The translations under genes and the position numbers were made by a program. From Phycisphaerales bacterium JB054 (GTDB lineage Bacteria; Planctomycetota; Phycisphaerae; Phycisphaerales; UBA1924), in the NCBI GenBank assembly GCA_043100935.1, contig JBICHP010000016.1, positions 25,520-89,519 on the forward strand: DNA of 64,000 nt, written 5' to 3'. Shown piece after piece: positions 5,910 to 59,850 of the stretch (positions are counted from its first letter, which is position 1; each line of letters opens with the position of its first letter). The notes under the pieces are model-generated. The model was given only the letters and a program-made list of their open reading frames with translations, was not told where the DNA came from and did not search any database.

Positions 5910-7880
5910 GTGCCGGTTCGTGCCGCCGGCGGGAGAGCCGTCGTGGGTAGTCAGGACGTCAAGGCCAATCAGGGCGGCGCGCAGCACCGGGCCTTCATGG
6001 CCGCCCTGCTGCGCGATCTCGAGGCCCTCGACCGCATGATCCGCCAGGGCCGGATCGAGAGCGGGCAGCGCCGGATCGGTGCCGAGCAGGAACTGGTCCT
6101 GATCGACCGCGACCGCCGCCCCGCGCCCAAGGCCATGGAGATCCTCGCCCGGATCGCCGAGGCGTGCCCGGACGACCGCATCACCAACGAACTCGCCCGC
6201 TTCAACCTCGAAGCCAACCTCTCACCGGTCCACGTCGGTGCCGGGATGCTCGAGGAGCTCGAGTCGGGCGTCAGAGAGACCCTCGCCACCGTCCGGCGCT
6301 TCGCCGCCGAATTCGACTGCGAGCCGTTGCTCACCGGGATCCTCCCCACGCTCGAGCTCCGCGACCTCGGCGCGGCGAACATCACCCCCTTCGAACGCTA
6401 CTTCGCGCTCGATCGCCTCATCCGCGACATGCGCGGCCGCGACTTCGAGCTCTACCTCAAGGGCACCGACGAGCTGGCCATCCGCTACCCCTCGATCATG
6501 CTCGAGGCGCTCAACACGAGCTTCCAGGTCCATCTCCAGGTCTCGGCCGACGAGTTCGTGCCGATGTACAACCTCGCCCAGCTCCTCGCCGGCCCCATCC
6601 TCGCCGCGACGGTCAACAGCCCCATCCTCTTCGGCCGCCGCCTCTGGCAGGAGACCCGCATCGCCATCTTCCAGCAGGCCGTGGACACGCGTCCGGTCTC
6701 CGGGGCCCGGCGCGAGACGCTCGCCCGCGTGCGCTTCGGCGACGACTGGGTCCGCAAGTCGGCCACCGAGATCTTCCGCACCGACATCGCCCGCTTCCGC
6801 CTGATGTTCTCCCGCGACGAGCCCGACGACTCGATCGCCGCCCTCGACGCCGGGCAGATCCCCAAGCTCAGCGCACTGGCCCTGCACAACGGCACCGTCT
6901 ACCGCTGGAACCGCCCCTGCTACGGCATCACCGACGGCAAGCCCCACCTCCGCATCGAGAACCGCTACCTCCCCTCCGGGCCCACCGTCCTCGACGAGAT
7001 CGCCAACTCCGCGCTCTGGATCGGCGCCATGCTCGGCGGCGGCGAACGCCTGGGCGACTTCACCCGCGACATGGCCTTCGACCACGCCTCGACCAACTTC
7101 CTCCGGGCCGCCAGACAGGGTCTCGACACCCACATGACCTGGATCGACGGCAAGTCCTACCCCGCCGACACCATTCTCCAGCAGCACGTCATCCCCGCCG
7201 CATGGGACGGCCTCGCCGCCGCCGGCCTCCCCGAAGAGGAGATCGAACGCTACCTCGGCGTCATCGAGGCCCGGGTCGAATCAGGCAACACCGGCGCCGC
7301 CTGGCAGCTCCGCTCCTTCGACACCATGCACCAGTCGCTCCGCCGCGGCCGCGCGGTCGCCTGCCTCACCAACGCGATGGTCAAACTCGCAAAGTCTGAC
7401 GACCCCGTCCACGAATGGCCACCGGCCGACGCCGCGTCCTGCGGCCGCGACCCGATGGCCTACTCCCGTGTCGGGCAGATCATGTCCACCAACCTCTTCA
7501 CCGTGGGCGAGGACGAGCTGGTCGCACTCGTCGCCCGCATCATGGACTGGGAGCACATCCGCCACATCCTCGTCGAGGACAACGATCACCGCCTCGTGGG
7601 CATCATCTCCTGGAGGCGTGTGCTCCGGTTCCTCGCCGACGGCTCGCACGACGCCTCGCAGGCCGCGGCATCAGAGGTCATGGTCACCGACCCCGTCACC
7701 GCCACGCCGGACACCGGGACGCTCGAAGCCGTCGCCATGATGCGCGCGCACAGCCTCTCCGCCCTGCCCATCGTCGAAGACGGGCGGCTCGTCGGCATCG
7801 TCACCGAGAGCGACTTCACCCGCATCGCCAGCGAACTGCTGGAGGAGCAGCTCCGCACCGGCAACGATCGGCAAGCATGA
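5910..7880 (+). CDS. Carboxylate-amine ligase (glutamate-cysteine ligase family 2-like) fused to a C-terminal CBS pair
   Basis: GCS2/YbdK-like N-terminal signature (IGAEQELVLID) and about 480 aa of ligase-like sequence. Two CBS modules follow (MSTNLFTVGEDELV...HILVEDNDHRLVGIIS and VMVTDPVTATPD...LPIVEDGRLVGIVTESD). Start uncertain (GTG 5910, GTG 5943 or ATG 5997). Confidence 0.7.
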   Translation: MPVRAAGGRAVVGSQDVKANQGGAQHRAFMAALLRDLEALDRMIRQGRIESGQRRIGAEQELVLIDRDRRPAPKAMEILARIAEACPDDRITNELARFNLEANLSPVHVGAGMLEELESGVRETLATVRRFAAEFDCEPLLTGILPTLELRDLGAANITPFERYFALDRLIRDMRGRDFELYLKGTDELAIRYPSIMLEALNTSFQVHLQVSADEFVPMYNLAQLLAGPILAATVNSPILFGRRLWQETRIAIFQQAVDTRPVSGARRETLARVRFGDDWVRKSATEIFRTDIARFRLMFSRDEPDDSIAALDAGQIPKLSALALHNGTVYRWNRPCYGITDGKPHLRIENRYLPSGPTVLDEIANSALWIGAMLGGGERLGDFTRDMAFDHASTNFLRAARQGLDTHMTWIDGKSYPADTILQQHVIPAAWDGLAAAGLPEEEIERYLGVIEARVESGNTGAAWQLRSFDTMHQSLRRGRAVACLTNAMVKLAKSDDPVHEWPPADAASCGRDPMAYSRVGQIMSTNLFTVGEDELVALVARIMDWEHIRHILVEDNDHRLVGIISWRRVLRFLADGSHDASQAAASEVMVTDPVTATPDTGTLEAVAMMRAHSLSALPIVEDGRLVGIVTESDFTRIASELLEEQLRTGNDRQA

Positions 7881-9181
7881 CCGAACACCCTCCCGCCCCC
7901 CGCGGCCCGCTGACCCGCACCATTGCCGATCTCCGCGGGAGCGACGGGCCCACACTCATCTGCACCGGCGGCGTCCACGGCAACGAGCCGGCCGGCATCC
8001 ACGCCGCCCGCGAGGTCGCCCGCAAGCTCCACGCCCTCGGATCCTCCGGCACCGCCCCCGCGTGGCGAGGCCGCTTCGTCGCGATGGTCGGCAACGTCGC
8101 CGCCTGCAACGCCGCGGACCCGACCCTGCGCTACATCGAGCGCGATCTCAACCGCCTGGTCACACCCGAAGAGATCCGCCGCGCGCGCGCACTCCCGCCC
8201 TCCGAACGCCACGCCGAGCAGCAGGAACTCCTCGAACTCATCGACGCCATCGACGAGACCATCGCCGACTCACCCCACGCCACCACGCTGCTCGACCTGC
8301 ACACGGTCAGCTCACCGAGCCCCGCCTTCGCCTACGCCGAGGACTCACTCCCCGCCCGCCAACTCGGCCGCTCGCTCGGGCTCCCGCTCGTGCTGGGTTT
8401 CGAGGAAGAACTCAGCGGCCTGCTCGCCGACTACACCACCAGCGAACTCGGCGTGCTCTCACTCGTTGTCGAGGCCGGCACGCACACCGACCCCGCATCC
8501 GTCTCCGTCCACGAGGCCGCGATCTGGACCGTTCTCGAAGCCCAGGGCATGATCGACAGCGCCAACGACGCGGCCCGGTTCGACGTGGCACAGCGTCTCC
8601 GCACCGCCGCCGGCCGCCGGGCCGGGCGCGTCTTCGACATCCGCCAGCGCGTCCCCGTCGGCTCGCCCCCGCTCGAGATGCTCGACTCGGCGCAGGCGTT
8701 CACCCGGGTGTGGAAAGGCCTGACCCGCGTCGCCACCCGCCACCGGCCCGACCGCACCGAGACACTCCGCGCCCCCGCCGACGGGTTGCTCTTCATGCCC
8801 AACCGGCAGCCCCGCAAACGCCCGGAGGACGACGCATTCTTCGTCCTGCGGCCAGTCTGGGGGCGGCTTATGTGGGTCTCCGCCCGGCTCCGCGCCATGC
8901 CCATGGCCCACCGGCTCCTCGCGGCTCTGCCCGGTGTGCGCCGAGCCGACGAGCACTCGCTCCACATCGATCCGTCGATCGCCGCGGTCATGGCCAGAGA
9001 TGTCCTCCACCTGTTCGGCTACCGCGTCCTCCAAGGCACCCCCGCGCCATACCACCGGCCCTGGACCCGCGTCGCGATGGCCTGCATCGCCCTCCCCCGC
9101 GCCCTGGTCCGGAGCCTCGGTGGCAAACGAGCAGATCCCGCAGAGGTCTGGGTCGTCCGCCGCCACCGCCTCGACCTCTAA
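7877..9181 (+). CDS. Succinylglutamate desuccinylase/aspartoacylase-family zinc hydrolase (M14-like)
   Basis: GGVHGNEPAG zinc-binding signature near the N-terminus. ATGA overlap with the upstream ligase gene (7877-7880). The N-terminal extension in the ORF track is rejected as Arg/Pro-rich. Confidence 0.7.
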   Translation: MTEHPPAPRGPLTRTIADLRGSDGPTLICTGGVHGNEPAGIHAAREVARKLHALGSSGTAPAWRGRFVAMVGNVAACNAADPTLRYIERDLNRLVTPEEIRRARALPPSERHAEQQELLELIDAIDETIADSPHATTLLDLHTVSSPSPAFAYAEDSLPARQLGRSLGLPLVLGFEEELSGLLADYTTSELGVLSLVVEAGTHTDPASVSVHEAAIWTVLEAQGMIDSANDAARFDVAQRLRTAAGRRAGRVFDIRQRVPVGSPPLEMLDSAQAFTRVWKGLTRVATRHRPDRTETLRAPADGLLFMPNRQPRKRPEDDAFFVLRPVWGRLMWVSARLRAMPMAHRLLAALPGVRRADEHSLHIDPSIAAVMARDVLHLFGYRVLQGTPAPYHRPWTRVAMACIALPRALVRSLGGKRADPAEVWVVRRHRLDL

Positions 9182-17106: not shown

Positions 17107-18444
17107 ATGAAGATTCTCATCTGCGGCATGGGCGAAGTCGGGACCCACTCGACCGAGTTTCTCAACAAGGGCGGACGCTCCATCACCGCCGTCGACTCCG
17201 ACCCCGCCAAGCTCCGCACCATCGCCGACACCATGGACGTCAGCGTCCTCCAGGGCAACTGCGCAAGCGCCGCCGTACTCCGCGAGGCCGGCGCCGCCAC
17301 CGCCGATCTCGTCCTGGCCACCACCGACAACGACGAGGTCAACATCGTCACCGCCAGCCTCGCCAAGGCCCTCGGCGCCAAACGCACCGTCGCCCACATC
17401 CGCCACGCCACCTACTTCGACCAGTCCGATGTCGACTACGAGAACCACTTCGGCATCGACCACATCGTCTGCCCGCAATACGCCACCGCCGCCGCCATCG
17501 CCAGGTCGCTCCGCAACCCCGCCGCCATCGCCATCGAGCACTTCGCCCGCGGCCGCATCGACATGCACGAGGTCTCCCTCAAGGACAACGCCTCCTCCAT
17601 CGGCAAGCCGCTCTCCCAGATCCAGCTCCCCCAGGGCACACGCATCGCCTCGGTCTCGCGCGCCGGCCAGGCCTTCATCCCCGGACGCGACACCGTGCTC
17701 CAGGACGGCGACCGACTCGTCCTCATCGGCGACACCGACGTCTTCGACGACATGCTCCGCCGCATCGGCGTCAAGGACCACCGCCGCCGCACCGTCGTCG
17801 TCATGGGCGGCACACCCATGGCCGCGTGGCTCTGCGAGGTCCTCCACAAGCGTGAGTGGTCCATCCGCCTCTTCGAGACCGACACCGACCGCGCCCACGA
17901 ACTCGCCGAACGCCTCGACTGGGTCACCGTCATCAACGCCGACCCCACCGACAACAGCGTCTTCGCCGAAGAGCACATCGCCCAGGCCGACGTCTTCATC
18001 GCCGTCCACCGCGAGGAGGAAGAGAACATCGTCGGCGCCGTCTTCGCCAAGGCCGGCGGCGTCACCGAGTGCGTCGCCGTCGTCGAGCGTGCCCGATACC
18101 TCGACCTGCTCTACCACATCGGCGTCGACCGGGCCTACTCCCCCGGCATGGTCGCCGCGAAGGAACTCGGCATCCTCCTCGACGACAGCCCCTTCCTCCG
18201 CATGGCCTCGCTGGCCTCGGGCGTCGATGTCTACCTCTGGCGGGTCACCGCCGGCGACATCAAGACTGAACGCCCGCTCATCGAGATGAACCTCTTCCCC
18301 AACGGCGTGATCGCCGCGATCCGCCGCGGCGGCGATGTCTGGGTCCCCGGAGCCCAGGACTCCATCAAGCCCGGCGACTCCATCATGGTCATCGGCCGCG
18401 CCGGGCACGAGACCGAACTCCGCAAGGCCCTCCGCGGCTCATGA
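17107..18444 (+). CDS. trkA: Trk potassium uptake system NAD-binding protein TrkA
   Basis: Two RCK/TrkA-N Rossmann modules (MKILICGMGEVG and VVVMGGTPMAAWL), each followed by a TrkA-C-like segment. Immediately upstream of trkH. Confidence 0.9.
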   Translation: MKILICGMGEVGTHSTEFLNKGGRSITAVDSDPAKLRTIADTMDVSVLQGNCASAAVLREAGAATADLVLATTDNDEVNIVTASLAKALGAKRTVAHIRHATYFDQSDVDYENHFGIDHIVCPQYATAAAIARSLRNPAAIAIEHFARGRIDMHEVSLKDNASSIGKPLSQIQLPQGTRIASVSRAGQAFIPGRDTVLQDGDRLVLIGDTDVFDDMLRRIGVKDHRRRTVVVMGGTPMAAWLCEVLHKREWSIRLFETDTDRAHELAERLDWVTVINADPTDNSVFAEEHIAQADVFIAVHREEEENIVGAVFAKAGGVTECVAVVERARYLDLLYHIGVDRAYSPGMVAAKELGILLDDSPFLRMASLASGVDVYLWRVTAGDIKTERPLIEMNLFPNGVIAAIRRGGDVWVPGAQDSIKPGDSIMVIGRAGHETELRKALRGS

Positions 18445-18562
18445 TCCCTCGCCACGACCAAGCCGCCGCCCGCCCGCCCAATCGACAGCCCGACGCGCGG
18501 TACCATCCGCCCTCGCACCACCGCACGCACGGCGTGCGCTCCATCGATCCGGGAACCCCGCG

Positions 18563-20125
18563 GTGAATTACCGTCTCGTCGTCGGACAGCTCGGCCTCCT
18601 CTTCACGCTCCTCGGCGTGATCATGATCGCCACCGCCGGGCTCTTCGCACTCGCCGAGGTCTTCGAGATCCGCCGCGACACCGACCAGACCGGACTGCTC
18701 GCACTCGCCGCGACCGGGGGCGTCGGCACCATCCTCGGCTACCTCGGCTGGTTCTCCGCCCGAAACACCCCGGGCTATATCGGCCGACGAGAGGCGCTCC
18801 TCCTCGTTGCCGGCAGCTGGCTCCTCGGCGCTGCGCTGGCCGCGACTCCCTACCTCGTCTGGGCCCATATCTCACCCGACACCCCGGATCACCCCTTCCG
18901 ATCGCCAGTCAACGCCTACTTCGAGGCCATGAGCGGCCTGACCACCACCGGCGCCACAGTGCTCCCCCAGATCGAGACGCTCCCCAGCGGCATCCTGCTC
19001 TGGCGCGCGCTCACCCACTGGCTCGGCGGCCTGGGCATCGTCGTGCTCTTCGTCGCCGTCCTCCCCGGCCTCGGCGTCGGCGGCAAACGCATCTTCAACG
19101 TCGAGGCCCCCGGCCCAAGCCCCGAGGGCCTGCAGCCGCACATCCGCGAGACCGCCCGCTGGCTCTGGTACATCTACCTCGGGCTCTCCGTCGCCATGGC
19201 CGCCGCCCTGTGGGTCGCCACCCCGCTCGACCTCTTCGACTCGGTCTGCCACACCTTCGCCACGCTCGCCACCGGCGGCTTCAGCACCAAGAACGCCAGC
19301 GTCGGCGCCTACGCCCACACCGTCTCGGTCGACATCATCGTCATCCCCTTCATGGTCCTCGCCGGGGTGAACTTCAACCTGTTCTACAAGCTCGTCCGCG
19401 GCCGGGTCAAAGAGGTCCTCCGTGACACCGAACTCCGCCTCTACCTCGCCCTGCTCAGCCTCGGCGCCCTGCTCGTCACCCTCGCGGTCTGGTACTCCGA
19501 CAACCCCATCGTCATGACCACCGGCGAACACGTCGAGTCCACCCTCGGCGCCTCGGCTCGCCAGGCCGTCTTCACCACCGTCTCCGTCCAGTCGACCACC
19601 GGCTTCTGCACCAGCGACTTCAATCTCTGGCCATTCCTCGCCAAGGCCGTCCTGGTCATGCTCATGTTCGTCGGCGGGTGCGCCGGCTCCACCGCCGGCG
19701 GCATCAAGGTCATCCGCGTCTGGGCCGCCTGCAAGATCCTCCTCGCCGAGGTCGAGCACGTCTTCCGCCCCAAGGTCGTCCGCCCCGTCCGGTTCGGCAA
19801 GTCCGCGATGGACCCCGAACTCAAACTCGGCACCCTCGCCTTCGTCCTGGGCATCATCATGCTCTTCGTGCTCGGCTCCGGCAGCGTGATGCTCTTCGAA
19901 CAGCTCAACCCGGCGTCCGACTGCTCCTACACCACCGCCGCGACCTCCGCCATCGCCACGCTCTGCACCATCGGCCCCGGGCTCGAGGCGGTCGGCGCCG
20001 TCGCCAACTACGGCTGGTTCTCTACGCCCTCCAAGATCGTCCTCACCCTCCTCATGGTCCTGGGCCGCCTCGAGATCTTCGCGATCATCGTGCTCTTCAG
20101 CCACCGCTTCTGGCGTCACGATTAG
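18563..20125 (+). CDS. trkH: Trk potassium uptake system membrane protein TrkH
   Basis: GTG at 18563. Polytopic protein with TrkH-type selectivity-filter segments ([34 protein letters not shown]). Confidence 0.85.
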
Positions 20126-20174: not shown

Positions 20175-20202
20175 TTGACACTCCCGCCCGACGCGGTACG
20201 CT
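20175..20202 (+). promoter_or_regulatory. Candidate sigma-70-type promoter for the riboswitch transcript
   Basis: TTGACA (20175-20180), 16-nt spacer, TACGCT (20197-20202). Lies about 10 nt upstream of the first conserved riboswitch block. By eye only. Confidence 0.35.
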
Positions 20203-20211
20203 CCGCCTGTC

Positions 20212-20470
20212 ATCGGTGCCTCAAGACCCGGCTCGCCGGGTCGAAGGGCTGAAAAGGGAAGTGCGGTGAAGCCTCGACCCCTCGCCCCGTGCGTCGGGAC
20301 ACAGGCCAGTCCGCCGCGGTCGCGCCGCCGTAGGGGGCACAGATCGCGAGTTCCCGCCCACCCCGGCCGCGTGCCGGATCCGGGCGGAACCAGCCACTGC
20401 CGCAACGCACGCCACGTGCCGCGCCGCGGGAAGGCCGAACTCGCGAGCCCCAAGCCGGAAGACCTGCCGA
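20212..20470 (+). promoter_or_regulatory. Cobalamin (B12) riboswitch aptamer
   Basis: Hallmark blocks in the canonical order: GGTGCC (20215-20220), AAAAGGGAA (20252-20260), GGTGAA (20265-20270), GCCACTG (20393-20399) and B12 box AAGCCGGAAGACCTGCC (20452-20468). Lies in a 523-nt non-coding gap upstream of the ATG at 20649. Confidence 0.8.
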
Positions 20471-20648
20471 AGACCGGGCTCGGTTTGTTCACGCCGAACC
20501 CGTAGGTCTGCACGCTCTCGCGCGAACGAGGCGTCGGGCACCGCCGCGGCACGCTCCCGCCGCCGGCGCACCCGTCGATCTTCGCGAGAGCTCCGCCACC
20601 CGGCAGGGAGCCGTCCCGCGCGAACTCGGGACGCATCAGAGGTCTCGC

Positions 20649-21752
20649 ATGTCCACGACACTCCGCCCGTCCGTCGCCGCACGCTCTCGCTGCGCCCTCG
20701 TCCTCTCGCTCGCCGCCGCCGCCGCTCCGGCCATGGCCGACGCCTTCTCCACCTACGGCGACCACTACCGCGCCTTCGCCACCCCGCCCGTCGGCAACGG
20801 CTCCTTCGGTGTCGCCGGAGACGCCCTCCCCGACGGCCGCCTGCTCATGGTCACCGGCAACAGCGTCTTCCTCGAGTCGCACGCCGGCTCGGCGGTCTTC
20901 AGCGAGGTCGCGATCCTCGACGCCTCACAGACCGGCGGCTCCACCGATCCCGCCTTCCTCACCGTCAGCCCCGACGGGCAGCGCATCGCCATCGGCACCG
21001 GCTTCGGCAAACCCGTCGCCGTCTTCGAGACCAACGCCCTCGGCACCCCCAACGCGCCCACCACACTCACCAGCGGCACGCTGGCCGACTACTTCACCGT
21101 CGGCCACTTCGACGGCACATGGTTCGACAACACCTCGCTGGCCCTCACCGCCGGCGAGTTCGGCCAGCCCTCGTTCGTCTCGATGCTCGACACCACCAGC
21201 GCACCCGACAACCCCCTCAACGAGCCCGTCGTCACCAACATCCTCGGCGGCTCCGCCGGTGTCGCCTTCGACAGCGCAGGGCGCCTCTACACCGCCAACG
21301 GCTTCGCCTACGGCACAGGCTCCGACACCGGCAACATCCGCGTCTTCGAACCCGCCGACTGGCTCGGCGGCGTCGACTTCGAGACCGGCGGCACATTCAT
21401 CGGTGACATCCTCAGCGGCAACGCGCTCAACATCGACGCCGACGGCAACCTCTTCGTCGGCGGCGGCGATTTCAACAACTTCGACGCCGGCTACCTCGGC
21501 ATCATCAACGCCCACGCCATCGCCGACGCTCTCGCCGGTGCCGGGCCCATCGACCCCAACAACCCGCTCCACCTCGCCCGCCTCGACCCCCGCCTCGACG
21601 GCTTCGGCTTCTTCGGCAGCGCCTTCAACCCCGCCACCGGCGAGCTCTACATCACCGACGGCCAGACCTGGTACGCCACCGTCCCCGCCCCCTCCTCGCT
21701 CGCGCTCCTCGCCGCCGCGGGCCTCGTCGCCCGGAGGCGCCGCCGTGACTGA
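20649..21752 (+). CDS. Secreted beta-propeller (NHL/SMP-30-like repeats) protein with PEP-CTERM-type C-terminal sorting tail
   Basis: Signal peptide (ALVLSLAAAAAPAMA). Repeated propeller-like strands (GVAFDSAGRLYTANGF, ALNIDADGNLFVGGG, SAFNPATGELYITDG). C-terminus VPAPSSLALLAAAGLVARRRRRD has the PEP-CTERM layout (motif, TM, Arg cluster). Confidence 0.75.
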   Translation: MSTTLRPSVAARSRCALVLSLAAAAAPAMADAFSTYGDHYRAFATPPVGNGSFGVAGDALPDGRLLMVTGNSVFLESHAGSAVFSEVAILDASQTGGSTDPAFLTVSPDGQRIAIGTGFGKPVAVFETNALGTPNAPTTLTSGTLADYFTVGHFDGTWFDNTSLALTAGEFGQPSFVSMLDTTSAPDNPLNEPVVTNILGGSAGVAFDSAGRLYTANGFAYGTGSDTGNIRVFEPADWLGGVDFETGGTFIGDILSGNALNIDADGNLFVGGGDFNNFDAGYLGIINAHAIADALAGAGPIDPNNPLHLARLDPRLDGFGFFGSAFNPATGELYITDGQTWYATVPAPSSLALLAAAGLVARRRRRD

Positions 21753-22860
21753 CAACACCGATCCCGGTGCCACCAGGCGAAGCCCAGTTCCTCCCCGCAC
21801 CGGTGCCACTGGGCGAAGCCCAGTGCCCTCCCCCCGACACCACCGCGGCAACCGCGCACGCAGAACCACATCCCTGCTCCTCGCGTCCTGCGCCGCCGCA
21901 CCAGCGGTCCTCGCCCAAGCCCCCTTCGCCGCCACCGTCATCGACTACCGCCCCGCCCCCGGCCAGTTCGTGCAGGACCCCGCCTTCAACAATCCTGCGC
22001 GCGCACTCGGCCCGCCCGTCGGCGGCGGCACGCTCGACGGCAACGACACCAAGGCCGTCACCCTCGGCGGCTTCGGCGGCTCCATCACCCTCGCCTTCGA
22101 CCGCCCCGTCCGCGACGACCCGCACAACCCGTTCGGACTCGACTGCATCGTCTACGGCAACGCCTTCTGGCACAACAACGATCCCAACCGCCGCTGGGCC
22201 GAACCCGCCACCATCGAGATCTCCCGCGACACCAACCGCAACGGCCTCGCCGACGACCCGTGGTACCTCATCCCCGGCACCCACCTGCCCGAGCCCATCA
22301 CCACCTGGCAGCCGCAGACCTGGGACGACAACACCAACGACAACACCTTCCCCCCCTCCCTCGCCTCGTGGCTCCCCCCCGGCCAAAGCGGCACCTGGCA
22401 GACCTGGTCCTTCCGCCTCCCGGCCGATCCCTTCGAGAGCTCGATCATCCTCGACAACCCCAACGGCCCCTTCGCCATCGACGAGGGCGTCATCGGCTAC
22501 GCCGACTGCTCGCCGACCCTCCTCCTCGGCGATCTCAACGCCGACAACACCATCGACGACCCCGACGCCGACCCGGCGGTCTTCTACACCACCCCCGACA
22601 ACCCCTTCACCGTCGGCATCGACCCCGGCAGTGGGGGGGGCGACGCCTTCGACATCGCCTGGGCCATCGACCCCGCGACCAATCTGCCCGCCAATCTCCG
22701 CGCCTTCGACTTCATCCGCATCACCAACGCGACCAACGCCGTGTTCGGCCCCTTCGGCGAACGCTCCGCCGAGCTGTGCGCCGTCGCCGATGTCGCCCCC
22801 CGCGTGAGCGATCACACCGTGCGCGCGCGGATCGAGCCCCGGGAGGTCCGCAGGCCATGA
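21745..22860 (+). CDS. Secreted protein with dockerin/EF-hand-like Asp-rich loop (unknown function)
   Basis: Signal peptide RRTTSLLLASCAAAPAVLAQA. Protein-like sequence with GDLNADNTIDDPDAD loop. Start ambiguous: GTG 21745 (8-nt overlap with the upstream stop) or GTG 21823 (better signal-peptide geometry). ATGA overlap with the next gene. Confidence 0.65.
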   Translation: MTDNTDPGATRRSPVPPRTGATGRSPVPSPRHHRGNRARRTTSLLLASCAAAPAVLAQAPFAATVIDYRPAPGQFVQDPAFNNPARALGPPVGGGTLDGNDTKAVTLGGFGGSITLAFDRPVRDDPHNPFGLDCIVYGNAFWHNNDPNRRWAEPATIEISRDTNRNGLADDPWYLIPGTHLPEPITTWQPQTWDDNTNDNTFPPSLASWLPPGQSGTWQTWSFRLPADPFESSIILDNPNGPFAIDEGVIGYADCSPTLLLGDLNADNTIDDPDADPAVFYTTPDNPFTVGIDPGSGGGDAFDIAWAIDPATNLPANLRAFDFIRITNATNAVFGPFGERSAELCAVADVAPRVSDHTVRARIEPREVRRP

Positions 22861-23783
22861 TGCGTGCGCGCGCCCAAACGAGGACCAGACCCGCGTGCCG
22901 CGGCCGTCTCGGCCGTATTGCCCCGCGCCCCGCCTTCACCCTCATCGAACTCCTCGTCTGCACCGCCATCATCGCGATGCTCATCGGCATCCTCCTGCCC
23001 AGCCTCCGCACCGCCCGCGAGGCCGGCCGCACCGCCCTCTGCCTCTCCAACCAGCGCCAGCTCGCCGCGGCCCTCCACCTCTACGCCACCGACAACGACG
23101 ACCACGCCGCCCCCGGCGCACCCGACTACCGCGCCAACCTCACCCGCTGGCACGGCAGCCGCGCGCGCACCGGCGAACCCTTCCGCGCCACCGGCGCCCC
23201 CCTCACCCCCTACCTCGCCGCCGACGCGGCCTCCCCCGACGCCCCATCGGCCGCCATCCGCACCTGCCCGACCTTCGCCGGCACGCTCGATCGCCTCCAC
23301 GACACCGGCCGCGGCTTCGAGCGCTCCGCCGGCGGCTACGGCTACAACAACGCCTACCTCGGCGTCGCCCTCGTCCGTGACACCCCCGTCAACAACCACC
23401 CCACCTGGCGCGTCCGCGACGACCGCACCGGCGCCCGCCTCTCCCGATTCGCGACGCCCAACGCCACCCTCGCCTTCGCCGACACCGCCTTCCCCGACGC
23501 CCTCGCGTCGGATCTGGTGGTCGAATACAGCTTCGCCGAGCCCCGCTTCCACCCCCAGTTCGGCCAGGGCGAGTCGGGTTTCCGCACCGACCCATCCATC
23601 CACTTCCGCCACGCCAACACCCGCGCCGTCGCCGTCTGGCTCGACGCCCACGCCGACACCCGCGCGCGCACGCACTCCTGGTCCAGCGGCCTCTACAATC
23701 CCTCGCCCGAGTCGGTCAACCTCGGCTGGTTCGGCCAGGACGACTCCAACGCCCTCTTCGACTTTGACGCCGGAGGTCGATAG
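22857..23783 (+). CDS. Prepilin-type N-terminal cleavage/methylation domain protein, DUF1559-like (H-X9-DG class pseudopilin)
   Basis: Canonical prepilin motif AFTLIELLVCTAIIAMLIGILLPSL. The CLSNQRQL segment and C-terminal HFRHANTRAVAVWLDAHA resemble the DUF1559 family expanded in Planctomycetes. Confidence 0.85.
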   Translation: MMRARAQTRTRPACRGRLGRIAPRPAFTLIELLVCTAIIAMLIGILLPSLRTAREAGRTALCLSNQRQLAAALHLYATDNDDHAAPGAPDYRANLTRWHGSRARTGEPFRATGAPLTPYLAADAASPDAPSAAIRTCPTFAGTLDRLHDTGRGFERSAGGYGYNNAYLGVALVRDTPVNNHPTWRVRDDRTGARLSRFATPNATLAFADTAFPDALASDLVVEYSFAEPRFHPQFGQGESGFRTDPSIHFRHANTRAVAVWLDAHADTRARTHSWSSGLYNPSPESVNLGWFGQDDSNALFDFDAGGR

Positions 23784-23784
23784 C

Positions 23785-24009
23785 GTGCCCACAGTCGAAC
23801 GCTGCATCTGCTACGACGTCAGCTTCGCCGAGCTCAAGGAGATCGCCGACAAGATCGATGCCGATCTCAAGACCCTCTCGGCCCGCACCGGTTGTTGCAC
23901 CGGCTGCGGCATGTGCAAGCCCTACGTCGAGCTCATGCTCAAGACCGGACGCACGAGCTTTCCATTGTTGCCGATCGCCGAGCTGCGCCGGCTCAATCAA
24001 TCGCCCTGA
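23785..24009 (+). CDS. BFD-like [2Fe-2S]-binding domain protein
   Basis: GTG at 23785 with GGAGG at 23772-23776. 74 aa with Cys pattern CxC...CCxxCxxC (ERCICYDV...GCCTGCGMCKPYV) typical of bacterioferritin-associated-ferredoxin-like domains. Confidence 0.6.
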   Translation: MPTVERCICYDVSFAELKEIADKIDADLKTLSARTGCCTGCGMCKPYVELMLKTGRTSFPLLPIAELRRLNQSP

Positions 24010-24084
24010 CCTGCCCGGTCGATCTGCGCGCGCACCCCAGCGCGACGCCGCCGGCGGCGGTACGCTCCTCCGCACGAGAGCCGC

Positions 24085-25482
24085 ATGCCGCCGCCACCAC
24101 AAGCCCAAATCAGCCCCGCCACGCGCCGCGACCTCCGACTCATCACTGTCGACGGGCTGTTCTACTGCCTCATGGTCGGGTGCGGCGAGGCCTACTTCGG
24201 CGCCTTCGCCATCGCCATGGGCATGCACGAGATCCTCGCCGGGCTCATCGGCTCGGTCCCCCTCGTCGTCGGCGGCACGCTCCAGCTCGTCACGCCCGTC
24301 ATGGTCCGTCGCCTCGGCTCGCTCCGCCGCTGGGTCGTCCTCTGCGCCACCATCCAGGCGTGCAGCTTCCTGCCGCTGGCCATGGGCGCCTACCACGGCA
24401 GCATGCCCGCGTGGCTGATCTACCTGGCCGTCAGTCTCTATTGGACGGTCAACTACGCCCAGGGCCCCGCCTGGAACACCTGGGTCGCGACCCTCGTCCC
24501 CGACCGCATCCGCGCACGCTACTTCGCCAGGCGCACCCGCATCATCCAGCTCGGCACCGTCGTCGGCCTGCTCGGCGCCGGCACCGCGCTCAACCTCGGC
24601 AAGGGCAACCCGGACAACTCCGCCGCCGTCGGTGTCTTCGTGATCCTGTTCCTCTCCGCGGCCGCGTTCCGGTTCTACGCCAGCCGGTGCCTGGCCGCCC
24701 AGTCCGAGCCCGAGCCCCTGCCGCGGAACTTCCGCTCGGTCTCGCCGAGGCAGTTCCTCGCCCGCTGGCGCACCGGGCACGACGCCCGCCTGCTCGGCTA
24801 CATGCTGCTGGTGCAGATCGCCGTGCAGACCTCCGGGCCCTTCTTCACGCCCTTCATGCTCGTCCGCCTCGAGCTCAGCTACGCCACCTACATGGTGCTC
24901 ATCGCGGTCTCGTTCGTCTCCCGCATGGTGGTGCTGCCCTTCCTCGGCCGTCTCGCCCAACGCCGCGGCCCGCGCGCGGTGCTGCTCGTCGGCGGCCTCG
25001 GGCTCATCCCCGCGTCCTCGCTCTGGGCCTTCGGCGACAACTTCTGGTACCTGCTGGCCATCCAGGCGTTCTCCGGCGCGGTGTGGGCCGCCTACGAGCT
25101 GGCCACCTTCCTCCTGCTCTTCGACGCCATCCCCTCCAACGAGCGCACCAGCGTGCTCAGCATGTTCAACTTCGCCAACACCCTCGCGATCGTGATCGGC
25201 TCGCTCGCCGGCGCAACGCTGCTCGGCCTGCTGGGCGAGGGCATCGCCGCCTACCACACGCTCTTTATCATCTCCTCTGGCCTCCGCGTGCTGACCATCC
25301 CGCTGCTGCTGCTCATCCACGTCCGCTCGTTCCGGCCCAAGCCGATCGAGCTGCAGCCCATGAGCGTCCGCCCGGGCGTCGGCGCGGTCGATCGGCCGGT
25401 GCTGGCGGGCGTCGAGGACGACGCCGAGGCCGACGCGTCGCGGGAGGGCGAAGAGGTCGGGGCGGCCGGGGCCGGCGGCTGA
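24085..25482 (+). CDS. MFS-type transporter
   Basis: About 12 predicted hydrophobic helices with Arg/Lys-rich short loops (VRRLGSLRRW, LAQRRGPRA) in the MFS motif-A position. Same strand, 75 nt after the BFD-like gene. Confidence 0.75.
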   Translation: MPPPPQAQISPATRRDLRLITVDGLFYCLMVGCGEAYFGAFAIAMGMHEILAGLIGSVPLVVGGTLQLVTPVMVRRLGSLRRWVVLCATIQACSFLPLAMGAYHGSMPAWLIYLAVSLYWTVNYAQGPAWNTWVATLVPDRIRARYFARRTRIIQLGTVVGLLGAGTALNLGKGNPDNSAAVGVFVILFLSAAAFRFYASRCLAAQSEPEPLPRNFRSVSPRQFLARWRTGHDARLLGYMLLVQIAVQTSGPFFTPFMLVRLELSYATYMVLIAVSFVSRMVVLPFLGRLAQRRGPRAVLLVGGLGLIPASSLWAFGDNFWYLLAIQAFSGAVWAAYELATFLLLFDAIPSNERTSVLSMFNFANTLAIVIGSLAGATLLGLLGEGIAAYHTLFIISSGLRVLTIPLLLLIHVRSFRPKPIELQPMSVRPGVGAVDRPVLAGVEDDAEADASREGEEVGAAGAGG

Positions 25483-25884: not shown

Positions 25885-27678
25885 GTGCCGCTCCCCCAGG
25901 CCAACCTCGTCCTCTTCTTTCTCGCCGGCTTCGTCGCCCTTTGGGGCGTCAGTGTCGTTCTCCGCGGCCTCTCCGGCTCGCGTGACACCGCCAGCCGCCG
26001 CTGCCCCCAGTGCCGGGCCGACATGCTGGGCCTCACCGGCCGCCGCTGCCCCGAGTGCGCCTTCGAGGCCGCGAGCGAGCGGGACCTGCACCGCCGCCGG
26101 CCCGACCGCCGCGTCGTCGCCGTCGGCGCGCTCGCGACGGCCGTCGGCTGCGCCCTCATCCCCATCGGGATCTCCGTCCGCAGCTGGGAGACCACCGGCT
26201 ACGCCGACAACACCGACCTCCACCCGCTCAACGCGCTGTTTGCGGGCGTCACCGCGTTCGCCGTCGTGCTGCTGGTGTGGGCGGTGCGGGGCGACCGGGC
26301 CAAGGGCAGGCGTCGCTGCCCCGAGTGCTGGTACGACATGCGCGGCACGCTGCCGACGGCGGCCGTCGCGACCGATACCGCGGATGACCGCGACCAGGCT
26401 CGTGCGCCAAACCTCTTGTGCCCCGAGTGCGGCCACACCGCCGCGACCGACCGCGAGCTCTACAAACCCCGCCGCCGCCCGCGCCTCGCGCTGCTGGCCG
26501 TCGCGATTGTCTTGCTCAGCTTCTACGGCCAGACCGTGCCGCGGGCGCTGCGGACAGGCCCGCTCGGCCTCGTGCCGACGACGGTGCTGATCGGGGGGAT
26601 GCGGTGGTTGCCGGAGGCGTGGTACGTCGACGGGAGCCGCGCCAACCGGGCCACGCTCCAGGCCCGAGTCTGGGACGACGACGTGTGGGGGTGGCAGCGG
26701 GCGTGGGGCCGGGCGGCGGCACTTCGGAGCCTTGAGAGCGGGCGGTTCGTGCAGCACCCGTCCGCGGCCGCGTCCATGCTCGATGTGCAGCAGATCGACG
26801 ACCGTGAGCGCGCGATCCGGGCGACGCTCCGGCTGTTGAACGACCCGGACCGCGCCGCCGCCACCGACGACGCCACGGCGTTGCTGGAGGCGATGGGATC
26901 GCTGCTGTGGCTTCCCGGCCGCGACGTGGAGAGCACGCGGGCCGAGGAGATCCGCGGCATGGTCGCGGCCGCCGAGCCCATGCTCTCCAAGCGGGTGCGG
27001 AAGGGGACCGAGGCCGAGGCGGCCATCGCCATACAGCTCTTCTGGATGGTCGATCCGCGCGACGCGGACTGGGTCCCGGCGGTCGCCGAGCGAGCGGTGC
27101 ACGGCGGCAAGCCCACGGTGAGGATGGCGGTGGGACTGCTCATCAGCACCGCCGACTCGGACCCGCGGGCAGTGCACGCGATCGAGGCCGCGTTGTCGAG
27201 TGGGAGCTTCCCAAAGTGGGCCCAGAGCGGGCTCAGAATGTCCAATCCCGCCGTTTCGAGCGATCGGGAGGCCGACGCCTTTCTCGCGATCGTGGCGTCC
27301 TCGACCGACCCCGAGGTCGCCCGACTTGTAGCGGAGGCGTTCGTCGGGGTCTCCTTCGAGGTCGAACCGTACGCGGAGCTGATCCGGGCGGCCCGCCAGC
27401 CCGACGCGGTGCGTGCGGGCTTTGCGGAGTCCTGGGGCCTCGGAGTCTACTTGGGGGTCAAGGACGCCATCGAGCTCGTGCTCCCGGCCGCGGCCAACGC
27501 CGACCCCGAGATCCGCGATCGTGTGCTCTGGTTCCTGAAGGAACACCCCGAGCACCTCGCCCCACACCGCGACGAGATCCTGCCGGTGGTCTCCCCGCTC
27601 GCCAAGGACGAGGACAAGGTCACCGCGCAGATGGCCGCCGAGATCATGGCGGCGCTCGACGCGGCCGCGAATGACTGA
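25885..27678 (+). CDS. Membrane protein with two CPxC...CPECG zinc ribbons and C-terminal HEAT-like repeat domain
   Basis: GTG at 25885 and an N-terminal TM. Ribbon 1 is RRCPQCRADMLGLTGRRCPECAF...RRRP followed by TM. Ribbon 2 is RRRCPECWYDMRG...LLCPECGHT...KPRRRP followed by TM. The C-terminus is helical-repeat (DPEIRDRVLWFLKEHPEHL...). Confidence 0.7.
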   Translation: MPLPQANLVLFFLAGFVALWGVSVVLRGLSGSRDTASRRCPQCRADMLGLTGRRCPECAFEAASERDLHRRRPDRRVVAVGALATAVGCALIPIGISVRSWETTGYADNTDLHPLNALFAGVTAFAVVLLVWAVRGDRAKGRRRCPECWYDMRGTLPTAAVATDTADDRDQARAPNLLCPECGHTAATDRELYKPRRRPRLALLAVAIVLLSFYGQTVPRALRTGPLGLVPTTVLIGGMRWLPEAWYVDGSRANRATLQARVWDDDVWGWQRAWGRAAALRSLESGRFVQHPSAAASMLDVQQIDDRERAIRATLRLLNDPDRAAATDDATALLEAMGSLLWLPGRDVESTRAEEIRGMVAAAEPMLSKRVRKGTEAEAAIAIQLFWMVDPRDADWVPAVAERAVHGGKPTVRMAVGLLISTADSDPRAVHAIEAALSSGSFPKWAQSGLRMSNPAVSSDREADAFLAIVASSTDPEVARLVAEAFVGVSFEVEPYAELIRAARQPDAVRAGFAESWGLGVYLGVKDAIELVLPAAANADPEIRDRVLWFLKEHPEHLAPHRDEILPVVSPLAKDEDKVTAQMAAEIMAALDAAAND

Positions 27679-27693
27679 CCGTACCCTCCCCGC

Positions 27694-28428
27694 ATGTCCA
27701 CCCCCCTCCGCCTCGCCATGTGGTCCGGCCCGCGCAACATCTCCACCGCGATGATGCGATCCTTCGAGAACCGCCCCGACACCGCCGTCGTGGACGAGCC
27801 GCTCTACGCCCACTTCCTCCACCACACCGGCATCGATCACCCCGGTGCGGCCGAAGTGATCGCCGCGGACGAGACCGACTGGCACGCCGTCACCGATCGC
27901 CTCCTCGGCCCCGTCCCCGGCGACAAGCCCATCTACTACCAGAAGCACATGGGCCAGCACCTGCTGCCGCACATCGACCGCGCCTGGATCGCCTCGCTCA
28001 CCAACTGCTTCCTCATCCGCGATCCCCGCGAGGTCATCACCAGCTTCATCAAGGTCGTCGAGCGGCCCACGGCCGAAGAGCTCGGCCTGCCGCAGCAGCT
28101 CGAGCTCTTCGAGGCCGAGCGGGCCCGCACCGGCCGCACACCGCCCGTGATCGACTCCCGCGACGTGCTTGAGAACCCCCGCGGCGTGCTCTCCAACCTC
28201 TGCGACGCCCTGCACATCCCCTTCGACGAGTCCATGCTCGCCTGGCCCCCCGGCCCGCGAGACACCGACGGCGTCTGGGCGCCCTACTGGTACGACAACG
28301 TCCACAAGTCCACCGGCTTTGGCACCTACACCCCCAAGCCCGACACCGTCCCCGACGACCTGCAAGAGGTCTACGAGACCTGCCAACGCTGCTACGAGGC
28401 CCTCGCCCCGCACCGCATCCGGGCCTGA
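27694..28428 (+). CDS. Sulfotransferase-fold/P-loop-like family protein (function unknown)
   Basis: N-terminal MWSGPRNISTAMMRSF resembles a PAPS 5'-phosphosulfate-binding loop. Globular, protein-like composition throughout. Family recollection only. Confidence 0.55.
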   Translation: MSTPLRLAMWSGPRNISTAMMRSFENRPDTAVVDEPLYAHFLHHTGIDHPGAAEVIAADETDWHAVTDRLLGPVPGDKPIYYQKHMGQHLLPHIDRAWIASLTNCFLIRDPREVITSFIKVVERPTAEELGLPQQLELFEAERARTGRTPPVIDSRDVLENPRGVLSNLCDALHIPFDESMLAWPPGPRDTDGVWAPYWYDNVHKSTGFGTYTPKPDTVPDDLQEVYETCQRCYEALAPHRIRA

Positions 28429-58387: not shown

Positions 58388-59707
58388 CTACCCCATCCGC
58401 GACGGAGGCGTCGTCTCCACCGGCCGCTCCCGCCGATCGCTCGCGAGCTTCCGCTTCGCCAGCACGGCAAACCCCAGCGCCCCGCTCACGCACAGGACAA
58501 AGCACATCGCATAAGCGATCGCGCTGGCGTGCTCCACCCGCGGCTGCAGCAGCTCGTACGCGCCCACACTCACAAACGGCGCGATCAGCCCCCGCACCCC
58601 CGTCAGCGTCACGTGCACACCCATGTACTCCGACGCCCGCGCCGCCGGCGCAAAGTCCAGATGCCCAAGCGTCCACGCCAGCGCCCCGCCCCCGAACGCC
58701 AGCCCCTGCACCACCGCCGACACCATCAGCAGCCACGGCGTGTTGGTGTAGACCGCCACCGTCGTCACGCCGCAGGCGACCACGAAGAACCAGCTGTGGA
58801 TCTTCCGGAACTGAATCACGTGCACCCGGTCCAGCAGCCGCGCCCAGATCGGGATTGATAGCGGCATCATCGCCAGCGGGATCGAGCTGGTGATCTTGAT
58901 GCCGCCCAGATACTCCATGTCAAACTGCTCGCGAAGCAGCACCACAAGCAGCGGCGTCTGCATCAGATTCCCCAGCCCCAGCAGGAACATGCACGCCATG
59001 TACCCCGCAAACATCCGGTCGCCCGCCAGCAGCCGCACCATCCCGATCGGGTTGAACGACGGCGCCCCGCCCGCCTCGCGGCTGACGACCTCCTCGCGCA
59101 TCAGCGACGCCCGGCCCCGAAGACGCACCCTGCTCCACGACCACACACCCACCAGCGACAGCACACACCCGATCGGCAAGAGCAACCTGAACCAGTCCGT
59201 GTCCCGGTCCATCGCCGCGCCCAGCCCCACACCGAGGGCCGCCATCGACAGCACCTGCACCGTCGCGGTCTTGCCCGTCACCCGCGCCCGCACGTTCCGC
59301 GAATAGTTCTGCCGCCACACCGTCGAGCGCAGCGTGACGTACCCCGCCCAGCAGAACCGGGCAAAGAGCACGCACGTGGTCACGCCCCACATCCCCGCCG
59401 CCGAGCGGGGCATGAAGCCGATCAACGCCACCATCAGGATCATCCCGACCTGCAGCCCGTTGATGAACCGGATCTTGTCCTTCGCGTGGCTCAGCTTCAC
59501 CCACACAAAGCTCACGATGTTGCTGAACGCCATCGACGCCGTGATCACCGCCACCACGAAGTTCAGCAGCGTGTCGCCCACCACCCCCTCGTAGGAGTTC
59601 TTCACCACCACGCCGATGATCGCGCTGTCCACCACCGACAGCAGGAAGGGCAGGAAGAACGCCGCCACCAGCTCGCGGCGGTAGTTCGACCTCGCCATCG
59701 CGGGCAT
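58388..59707 (-). CDS. MFS-like polytopic transporter
   Basis: About 12 hydrophobic helices and a central Arg-rich loop. ARLLDRVHVIQFRK lies in a motif-A-like position. Start uncertain (Met at 59707, 59698 or 59782). Confidence 0.6.
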   Translation of the reverse strand: MPAMARSNYRRELVAAFFLPFLLSVVDSAIIGVVVKNSYEGVVGDTLLNFVVAVITASMAFSNIVSFVWVKLSHAKDKIRFINGLQVGMILMVALIGFMPRSAAGMWGVTTCVLFARFCWAGYVTLRSTVWRQNYSRNVRARVTGKTATVQVLSMAALGVGLGAAMDRDTDWFRLLLPIGCVLSLVGVWSWSRVRLRGRASLMREEVVSREAGGAPSFNPIGMVRLLAGDRMFAGYMACMFLLGLGNLMQTPLLVVLLREQFDMEYLGGIKITSSIPLAMMPLSIPIWARLLDRVHVIQFRKIHSWFFVVACGVTTVAVYTNTPWLLMVSAVVQGLAFGGGALAWTLGHLDFAPAARASEYMGVHVTLTGVRGLIAPFVSVGAYELLQPRVEHASAIAYAMCFVLCVSGALGFAVLAKRKLASDRRERPVETTPPSRMG

Positions 59708-59850
59708 CGCCGACGGCAGAAACGACCGCACCGGGAACAACACCCGGCCCACCCACGTTTCATCATCGGCAACAGGTCGCACGCCTCAAGCCTTGACGCC
59801 CCGCGCCCCCGAAGCAACCCCAAGCCCGCCCCCGCCATACGATCACCCAA

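Follow-up and report, generated by a model that had tools for sequence, protein, structure and literature searches.

What does a cobalamin riboswitch control when the genes behind it do not seem to include any canonical B12 gene? This question is raised by a locus of five genes in Phycisphaerales bacterium JB054, which lies in a stretch of 64,000 nucleotides (GenBank assembly GCA_043100935.1, contig JBICHP010000016.1, positions 25,520 to 89,519 of the forward strand), referred to below as the window. The window has a G+C content of 69%, and its nearest relatives are Phycisphaerales/Planctomycetota metagenome-assembled genomes. The five genes run in the same direction on the + strand after a gap of 523 nucleotides, which separates the TrkH stop at 20125 from the first start codon at 20649. 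They encode, in order, a secreted beta-propeller (P1), a second secreted protein (P2), a protein resembling type IV pilins (P3), a small BFD-like protein (P4) and a transporter of the major facilitator superfamily (MFS) (P5). Our data indicate that the locus is likely to be a B12-repressed envelope operon for corrinoid capture in a Phycisphaerae planctomycete. The preliminary description of this DNA, made from the letters alone, had stated that the operon held no canonical B12 genes, and this is contradicted by P2, which is related to the BtuH domain. Its wider idea of a B12-linked envelope system for corrinoid capture is very probably right, in view of the riboswitch, the homology to BtuH and the interchange of the first gene with a DUF4465 gene in related loci.

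P2 gave the most direct answer to the question. It had no match in Pfam, which holds no model for the BtuH domain. A profile of the P2 family searched against the PDB found 8BLW chain B (E 2e-31) and 7BIZ chain A (E 2e-22), in both cases in the C-terminal part of the chain. 7BIZ is BtuH2 (BT1956) with cyanocobalamin, which it binds via its C-terminal globular domain with a dissociation constant of about 6 pM (PMC8941943), and 8BLW_B is BtuG1, in which a propeller is fused to a BtuH domain (PMC10404256). A BtuH domain was also rebuilt from overlapping Bacteroidetes fragments, recovered with 7BIZ as query, and the P2 family aligned with it by hhalign from end to end of the domain (99.6%, E 9e-24, 241 columns). 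In a Foldseek search with the AlphaFold2 (AF2) model of P2, 8BLW_B and 7BIZ were the sole significant matches, the next having an E of 0.6. By profile, alignment and model comparison, P2 is thus a homologue of the BtuH B12-binding domain, and is best described as a stand-alone BtuH domain with a signal peptide. The preliminary description had seen in P2 a secreted protein with a dockerin/EF-hand-like loop. Secretion and the richness in Asp were confirmed, and the loop is an insertion particular to the family, some 40 residues long (GDL-x-x-DN-x-x-DD ... PGSGGGD), but P2 is a BtuH domain and not merely a dockerin- or EF-hand-like protein.

The contacts published for BtuH2 were mapped onto P2 with a chain offset of 100. 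Cobalamin contacts of BtuH2 include Gln333, Asn399 and Phe401 (PMC8941943). Gln333, in the motif PAPGQF, corresponds to Q74 of P2, which is invariant in the family, and Asn399 and Phe401, in the motif GNAF, correspond to the invariant N139 and to the conserved F141. Leu578 is replaced by F or L and is thus conserved in character. The contacts that P2 retains are those touching the ribose, the phosphate and the lower ligand of the cobamide. In BtuH, conservation of the surface besides an inter-domain interface is found only in the pocket region near the phosphate (PMC8941943). Next to N139 and F141, P2 also has the same motif as the D-x-N-G-N-G-L-x-D-D-x-W-Y loop of BtuH2 (D162-N164-N166...D170-D171), and the pattern D-x-N-x-N-G-x-x-D-D is kept. 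This loop may correspond to one of the Ca2+ sites of BtuH2, for which the BtuH2 paper names no calcium ligands (PMC8941943). We therefore treat P2 as a predicted corrinoid binder.

Two further observations concern the P2 family at large. About half of the P2 homologues have a C-terminal dockerin-type calcium-binding module (A1 columns 420-480; P0046, P0049, P0054, P0073 and P0113), for which PF00404 is precomputed in several cases, and which is absent from the window's clade. The module suggests tethering to a cohesin-like partner. Residues 47-163 of P2 form a segment that is linked to Leptospira lipoproteins, and the LIC_13355 lipoproteins of Leptospira may also contain a BtuH-type B12-binding domain.

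P2 does not stand alone in related genomes. More than 1,000 relatives are found in databases, all labelled hypothetical and all from Phycisphaerae/Planctomycetota. A scan with one genome per species found relatives of P2 in 361 stretches, from which 80 loci were kept, and gene order was compared by tblastn over 83 sequences (the 80 species loci, two extra contigs and the window). A riboswitch, a PEP-CTERM surface protein, a BtuH-like protein and a type-IV-pilin-like protein form a conserved unit in at least 80 Phycisphaerae species. The first gene encodes a P1-type propeller in 67 of the 83 sequences, a DUF4465 protein with a PEP-CTERM tail in 12 (PF14717, E about 1e-54) and a divergent P1-like PEP-CTERM protein in two (L062 and L077). 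It is absent from one sequence, L064, where the riboswitch directly precedes P2, so that it is dispensable in at least one lineage; in L025 the contig is truncated and the first gene was not assigned. P3 follows P2 in 76 sequences, and four of the seven that lack it end too early, which gives 76 of 79 loci with downstream sequence. A BFD-like P4 comes after P3 in about 25 of the 83, in P1-type loci only, and an MFS gene comes after P4 in six, namely the window and five close relatives. Four long contigs from different lineages showed the same compact module of three or four genes with overlaps.

The riboswitch is conserved together with the genes. Rfam at its gathering score, which is 31.5 bits for RF00174, was applied to 38 related loci and found RF00174 in 33 of them with 40 to 122 bits, always on the operon strand and just 5' of the first gene. 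Four of the five misses (L001, L002, L003 and L007) are the closest high-GC relatives of the window and keep the B12 box; in the fifth, L053, the upstream sequence is cut by the contig end. When Rfam was combined with a regular expression for the B12 box and all loci were scored, riboswitch evidence was obtained in each of the 76 that have enough upstream sequence, the other seven of the 83 being truncated. In L064 the riboswitch (705-1024, 102 bits) stands directly 5' of the BtuH-like gene without a PEP-CTERM first gene. In L081, from a Phycisphaerales genome, a DUF1573 protein of 367 residues is encoded just 5' of the riboswitch (7592-8695) and is unrelated to P1 (BLASTP E 0.09).

The match in the window lies in the leader of the co-directional genes, 164 nucleotides upstream of P1. 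A permissive search of 751 nucleotides gave it 30.0 bits (E 1.1e-5) over the complete RF00174 model (1-189), and a scan of the whole window with Rfam at the gathering score listed nothing. The aptamer falls below the cut-off because its peripheral stems are enlarged. The score steps down inside the clade of the window, from 72 bits in L034 to 60 in L004, 57 in L005, 42 in L006 and 30 in the window. A MAFFT alignment of nine Rfam matches, meant as the basis of a covariance model, aligned the variable stems badly, and the Rfam scans and the B12-box expression were used instead. In an alignment of nine members of the clade the core blocks are invariant, including GGGAAGTGCGGTGAAG, CCGCCGCGGTCGCGCCGCCGT, GGGAAGGCCGA and AGCCGGAAGACCTGCCGA; the motif GCCACTG is kept in eight members and reads GTCACTG in L007, and variation in length is restricted to the peripheral stems. 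The window aptamer has the conserved core and the B12 box in the right order. On these sequence comparisons the leader is a conserved orthologous cobalamin riboswitch and not a chance match or a remnant. The preliminary description had read the leader as a cobalamin riboswitch and had named a score below the Rfam threshold as a reason to abandon this. Such a score was found, but we judge the element genuine because of the comparative data on its relatives, which overturn that result. The test proposed there, whether orthologous operons keep the riboswitch, came out in its favour.

The slot of the first gene adds a second link to B12. The AF2 model of P1 (mean predicted local distance difference test score, pLDDT, of 90.9) is an all-beta propeller followed by the PEP-CTERM helix, and its approximately 25 strands suggest about six blades. 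P1 bears a signal peptide and has no lipobox; instead it ends in a PEP-CTERM tail at residues 344-366 (VPAPSSLALLAAAGLVARRRRRD), which scored 18.4 bits with TIGR02595 (cut-off 16) and 17.9 with the Pfam model, below its cut-off of 20.7. Such a tail is kept in P1, in the DUF4465 proteins and in the divergent first-gene proteins. The earlier view of P1 as a signal-peptide propeller with a PEP-CTERM anchor was thus correct, and its further proposal of an analogue of BtuG was not confirmed. The best 50 of 471 significant Foldseek matches were generic propellers of the NHL, WD40 and YVTN types at a template modelling score of about 0.5, with no BtuG entry among them, and neither the single sequence nor a 28-sequence profile of P1 had a meaningful match in the PDB, which holds the BtuG1 propeller (8BLW_B) and the BtuG2/BtuG3 structures given in PMC10404256. 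P1 as a homologue of BtuG was therefore dropped. P1 and BtuG have in common that they are secreted beta-propellers directed to the surface, and that their genes belong to B12 loci under riboswitch control. Unlike BtuG, which is a seven-bladed lipoprotein lid of BtuB, P1 seems to have about six blades, and it has a PEP-CTERM anchor in place of a lipid and no BtuB nearby.

In 12 related loci the slot of P1 is filled by a beta-jellyroll of the BtuJ/DUF4465 family (PF14717), behind the same riboswitch and before the same P2-P3 pair. Six divergent DUF4465 proteins have been shown by experiment to bind B12, and one of them comes from Mucisphaera calidilacus, itself a member of the Phycisphaerae (PMC13398666). 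The window has no DUF4465 gene and has the propeller first, and the planctomycete DUF4465 proteins differ from BtuJ in carrying PEP-CTERM tails and not lipoprotein signals. Because the slot elsewhere holds a B12 binder of the DUF4465/BtuJ type, P1 is probably a second corrinoid binder or a docking partner for P2.

In P3, the third conserved protein, homology to the alpha-1 helix of PilA/GspG (E about 1e-10 to structures) extends over the first 60-70 residues. The protein matched N_methyl (25.8 bits, cut-off 21.2) and TIGR02532 (22.1, cut-off 16.3); the prepilin N-terminal domain was present in 27 of 28 orthologues. The globular domain had no relative in the PDB by sequence. With DUF1559 (PF07596), P3 scored 16.7 bits against a cut-off of 23.3 and matched model positions 2-28 of 268 only, and 14 of the 28 orthologues had a similarly weak match confined to the first 30 or so positions. 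The C-terminal motif is H-X10-DA in the window and an exact H-X9-DG in the shortest orthologues, two of the 28 reaching the cut-off of TIGR04294. An exhaustive search returned 185,863 cluster representatives at E <= 0.001, 4,031 at <= 1e-10 and 117 at <= 1e-30, and the best 150 matches aligned over the full length. Among more distant full-length relatives, five of ten reached the H-X9-DG (TIGR04294) cut-off and one reached that of DUF1559. The orthologues are highly conserved and share the motifs SN-x-RQL, NL-x-RWHG, GGYGYNNAF, IEYSFAEPRF and HFRH...W(L/C)DGH. Because the DUF1559 match is N-terminal only while distant relatives reach TIGR04294, we place P3 in the H-X9-DG prepilin superfamily as a separate and dedicated branch and not as a canonical member of PF07596. 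P3 had been described as a DUF1559/H-X9-DG prepilin that might offer a functional handle on DUF1559. The prepilin N-terminus was confirmed and canonical membership of DUF1559 was not; the handle is accordingly a genomic context, found in 76 of 79 loci, for a prepilin related to DUF1559.

Compared with the DUF1559 (PF07596, SBP_bac_10)/H-X9-DG (TIGR04294) proteins of Planctomycetota and Verrucomicrobiota, P3 shares the prepilin N-terminus followed by SN-x-RQL, and the C-terminal HFRH...W(L/C)DGH motif of its family resembles that of the H-X9-DG proteins. Its globular domain forms a separate subfamily with GGYGYNNAF and IEYSFAEPRF as motifs of its own, and it has a fixed genomic partner, unlike the bulk of that family. 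The likeness to GspG and PilA is limited to the alpha-1 helix. The head of P3 is about twice as large as theirs and unrelated to it, and its gene stands beside that of a ligand-binding protein and not in a gsp or pil cluster.

Taken as a B12-repressed operon for corrinoid capture, the locus would work as follows. When intracellular cobalamin is plentiful it would bind the leader aptamer and turn the operon off, probably at translation initiation or through Rho. When cobalamin is scarce, P2 would be secreted and would bind cobamides via the nucleotide loop and the phosphate, as does BtuH2 of Bacteroides, and P1, directed to the surface of the cell through its PEP-CTERM tail, would act as the second binder or as the docking partner of P2. 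After cleavage by prepilin peptidase, P3 would become part of a pseudopilus or fibre, or sit at its tip. It would link the captured vitamin to an envelope-spanning machinery of the pilus or type II secretion system (T2SS) type, in place of the BtuB/TonB gate. In the lineage of the window only, P4 and P5 may, speculatively, serve the steps at the cytoplasmic membrane and in the cytoplasm.

Several results weigh against this reading. The window aptamer lies 1.5 bits under the RF00174 gathering score and has long insertions. A scan of the leader for an intrinsic terminator or a sigma-70-type promoter yielded neither, and the fold z-score of the expression platform (-1.3) is not exceptional. The only complementarity noted was that of the six nucleotides AGGTCT, next to the start codon of P1, with AGACCT in the B12 box. 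Because no intrinsic terminator was found, the switch probably turns expression off translationally or via Rho. The AF2 model of P2, made from a 20-sequence alignment, is poor (pLDDT 58), too poor for a view of the pocket; the comparison with BtuG and BtuH structures that had been suggested at the outset agreed with 8BLW_B and 7BIZ for P2 at this model quality, and gave no match to BtuG for P1. P2 has not kept the residues with which BtuH2 contacts the corrin amides: the segment with His476 is peculiar to the Bacteroides proteins, Tyr510 falls in a gap of the P2 family, Trp511 is replaced by I or V and Trp577 by P. Among the Bacteroidetes homologues (P0293 and P0296), too, these positions vary. 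PDB and Foldseek searches with P1 revealed no specific resemblance to a known B12 binder. Three untruncated loci (L033, L051 and L052) have the riboswitch and P2, but the 2.5 kb that follow P2 contain no pilin gene on the strand of the operon; their pilin may be encoded elsewhere or be absent. In the four long contigs, surveyed for 10 kb around the module, there was no gene for a TonB-dependent receptor (btuB), a FecCD permease or a periplasmic binding protein (btuFCD), and no TonB-dependent transporter adjoined P1 there; no transporter is linked in these contigs, so that uptake, as distinct from binding, is conjectural. An all-against-all clustering of neighbouring open reading frames for linked transporters returned only housekeeping genes such as rpoC and aldehyde dehydrogenase.

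One route by which a captured cobamide might enter the cell would be pilus-assisted uptake across the outer membrane without a TonB-dependent BtuB, in which a retractile fibre formed or tipped by P3 would dock P2 and P1 and pass the cobamide via a pore of the secretin or crateriform type to the periplasm. In planctomycetes, pili-like fibres that emerge from crateriform structures bind dextran, and dextran accumulates actively in the periplasm (PMC5394234). This case makes fibre-assisted uptake conceivable but is no evidence for such a route at this operon, and we hold the route to be unlikely. If it were true, a function would for the first time be assigned within the very large prepilin family of planctomycetes, which would also suggest that the many paralogues serve as substrate-specific uptake adaptors.

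A surface reservoir, or competitive sequestration without import, would use the same proteins differently, with P3 only secreting or displaying P1 and P2 via a T2SS-type pathway. Pseudopilins classically drive secretion in the T2SS, which would suit such a role. The lack of btuB, btuFCD or any other transporter within 10 kb in the four long contigs fits a reservoir, as does the surface tethering suggested by the dockerin-type module of many P2 homologues, and the title and abstract of a preprint present BtuJ1 of Bacteroides as an extracellular reservoir (bioRxiv 10.1101/2025.07.01.662609). In Bacteroides, however, the riboswitch-repressed binders feed transporters (PMC10404256). A dedicated pilin in 76 of 79 loci, its gene joined to that of the binder by a stop/start overlap, would be unusual for a mere secretion substrate, and generic T2SS pseudopilins are normally not provided one per cargo. 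A reservoir without import therefore seems to us quite improbable.

It is also conceivable that the operon is regulated by B12 and serves another ligand or purpose, such as another tetrapyrrole, a corrinoid precursor or an envelope function needed without B12. Cobalamin riboswitches also control B12-independent alternatives, for example metE and nrd, so that the riboswitch by itself would be compatible with this. The loss of the corrin-contacting residues of BtuH2 from P2 and the lack of an identifiable ligand site in P1 by profile search and Foldseek could be read in the same way. Against it, P2 keeps just the residues for the ribose, phosphate and lower ligand of a cobamide, and the interchange of P1 with DUF4465, in which six of six divergent members tested bind B12, favours cobamides; a different ligand is very improbable. 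Least probable of all is a decaying riboswitch in the window with an operon that is constitutive or otherwise controlled, for the score of 30.0 bits against 31.5, the long insertions and the likewise sub-threshold nearest relatives (L001, L002, L003 and L007) are set against core blocks, including the B12 box, that are invariant over nine clade members, and against changes of length in peripheral stems only, a pattern of purifying selection on a working aptamer.

The reading as a B12-repressed operon for corrinoid capture places the locus beside the BtuB-BtuG-BtuH-BtuJ relay of Bacteroides. Two binding domains and the control by a riboswitch are common to both; the module belongs to another phylum, is anchored differently, has no linked BtuB/BtuFCD and includes a pilin-like partner. 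The homology of P2 to BtuH of Bacteroides thetaiotaomicron (BtuH2/BT1956 and the H-domain of BtuG1/BT1490) spans the complete globular domain that binds B12. P2 retains the nucleotide-loop contacts Gln, Asn and Phe together with the Asp/Asn loop, and is likewise secreted and encoded behind a cobalamin riboswitch. It differs from BtuH in having neither N-terminal PKD/Ig domains nor a fused propeller, in its plain signal peptide in place of a lipoprotein signal, in the C-terminal dockerin-type module of many species, in the Asp-rich insertion and the unconserved corrin-amide contacts, and in the absence of linkage to btuB, btuG or btuFCD within 10 kb in the four long contigs. A 2026 review places BtuH predominantly in Bacteroidota and in three Firmicutes (PMC13616437), whereas the host of P2 belongs to the Phycisphaerae. 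In the literature searched we found no publication in which BtuH, a pseudopilin and a cobalamin riboswitch are brought together for Planctomycetes or Phycisphaerae, and DUF1559 itself is rarely mentioned there; the preliminary description, which held the system to be undescribed, agrees with us. From the comparisons above, P2 appears as a branch of the BtuH family that is new and so far lacks annotation, and the system as a variant of surface corrinoid capture. What is new in it is the pilin P3, H-X9-DG/DUF1559-related and dedicated to this module. The interest lies in the putative role of P3 and, less so, in that of P1; P4 and P5 are peripheral.

Surface capture of the BtuH/BtuJ type has so far been known from Bacteroides, where it centres on the gate of BtuB and BtuG. 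Hundreds of planctomycete species are now seen to have these binding domains, anchored by PEP-CTERM or dockerin modules, without a linked BtuB and tied to a pilin-like gene, and this points to a second architecture for moving a vitamin of 1.3 kDa across an outer membrane. For a member of the H-X9-DG/DUF1559 prepilins, the operon offers a phenotype (growth at limiting B12) and partners (P2 and P1). It also exposes a gap in annotation: since Pfam does not model the BtuH domain, over 1,000 proteins of planctomycetes are labelled hypothetical, as probably are the LIC_13355 lipoproteins of Leptospira. Soil, sediment and algal surfaces are common habitats of Phycisphaerae, and their route of B12 acquisition therefore matters for models of cobamide cross-feeding.

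P4 and P5 stand apart from the conserved unit. P4 scored 22.5 bits with Fer2_BFD (PF04324), below the cut-off of 26, and has the pattern C7-x-C9...C41-x2-C44, which is conserved in orthologues; P5 matched MFS_1 (PF07690) at 74.9 bits (cut-off 33.4), and its PDB matches, Spinster and NorA, are distant and generic for the superfamily. The preliminary description had counted both as genes of the operon. The BFD-like Cys pattern is present and the MFS assignment was confirmed, but the occurrence of the two genes in about 25 and six loci marks P4 and especially P5 as lineage-restricted add-ons outside the conserved system. In loci of the DUF4465 type (L081:12322-12537, and L032, L070 and L077), a small gene for a Trm112-like zinc-ribbon protein (LACPxxxCHGxL...CxxCG...PVLIPEEAE) often stands after the pilin gene, in the place of P4. 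It was considered as a homologue of P4 and rejected, the two being unrelated on comparison.

Features of the locus and of its surroundings are collected in the table.

Table. Position and basis of assignment of the features discussed (coordinates in the window)
Feature	Coordinates	Strand	Length	Basis or remark
TrkA-TrkH potassium-uptake pair	17107..20125			directly upstream of the leader
Cobalamin riboswitch aptamer (RF00174), enlarged peripheral stems	20197..20485	+		full-model match, 30.0 bits
Expression platform and 5' untranslated region	20486..20648	+		C-rich, 67 C against 53 G
P1, secreted beta-propeller (probably about six blades), PEP-CTERM tail	20649..21752	+	367 residues	AF2, TIGR02595
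P2, secreted BtuH-domain protein, predicted corrinoid binder	21745..22860	+	371 residues	profile, hhalign and Foldseek homology
Imperfect direct repeat	21764..21832		33 nucleotides	85% identity, spacing 36 nucleotides
P2 segment linked to Leptospira lipoproteins	21883..22233			P2 residues 47-163
P3, type-IV-pilin/pseudopilin-like, H-X9-DG/DUF1559-related, globular domain of about 220 residues	22857..23783	+	308 residues	N_methyl
P4, small cytoplasmic BFD-like [2Fe-2S] protein, accessory	23785..24009	+	74 residues	Fer2_BFD, 22.5 bits
P5, MFS transporter, lineage-specific, possibly co-transcribed	24085..25482	+	465 residues	MFS_1, 74.9 bits
Zinc-ribbon/HEAT-repeat protein, then Sulfotransfer_5 protein	25885..28428		597 residues (first protein)	Sulfotransfer_5, E 5e-51
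Second MFS transporter	58388..59785	-		MFS_1, E 3.5e-12

The gene junctions reported earlier were all reproduced. The GTG at 21745 overlaps the P1 stop (21750-52), and an alternative GTG start of P2 at 21823 lies 3' of the 33-nucleotide direct repeat. P2 and P3 overlap by ATGA at 22857, P3 and P4 are joined as TAG-C-GTG (23781-87) with a gap of one base at 23784, and 75 nucleotides separate P4 from P5. The direct repeat lies between the two candidate starts of P2 and encodes a duplicated GAT(R/G)RSPVP segment N-terminal to the signal peptide. The upstream GTG is the P2 start chosen by the gene caller in a relative with 99% identity.

The arrangement with the TrkA-TrkH pair upstream is shared only with the closest relatives (L001-L003, L083 and L084). 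The long open reading frame of TrkH overlaps TrkA in an alternative frame, as is usual in DNA of high G+C content. No further B12 gene was found in the surveyed remainder of the window, where the second MFS transporter is unlinked to the riboswitch. Downstream of P5, the 597-residue protein has an N-terminal zinc ribbon and C-terminal HEAT repeats, and its gene and that of the Sulfotransfer_5 protein are syntenic in close relatives, with or without the MFS gene.

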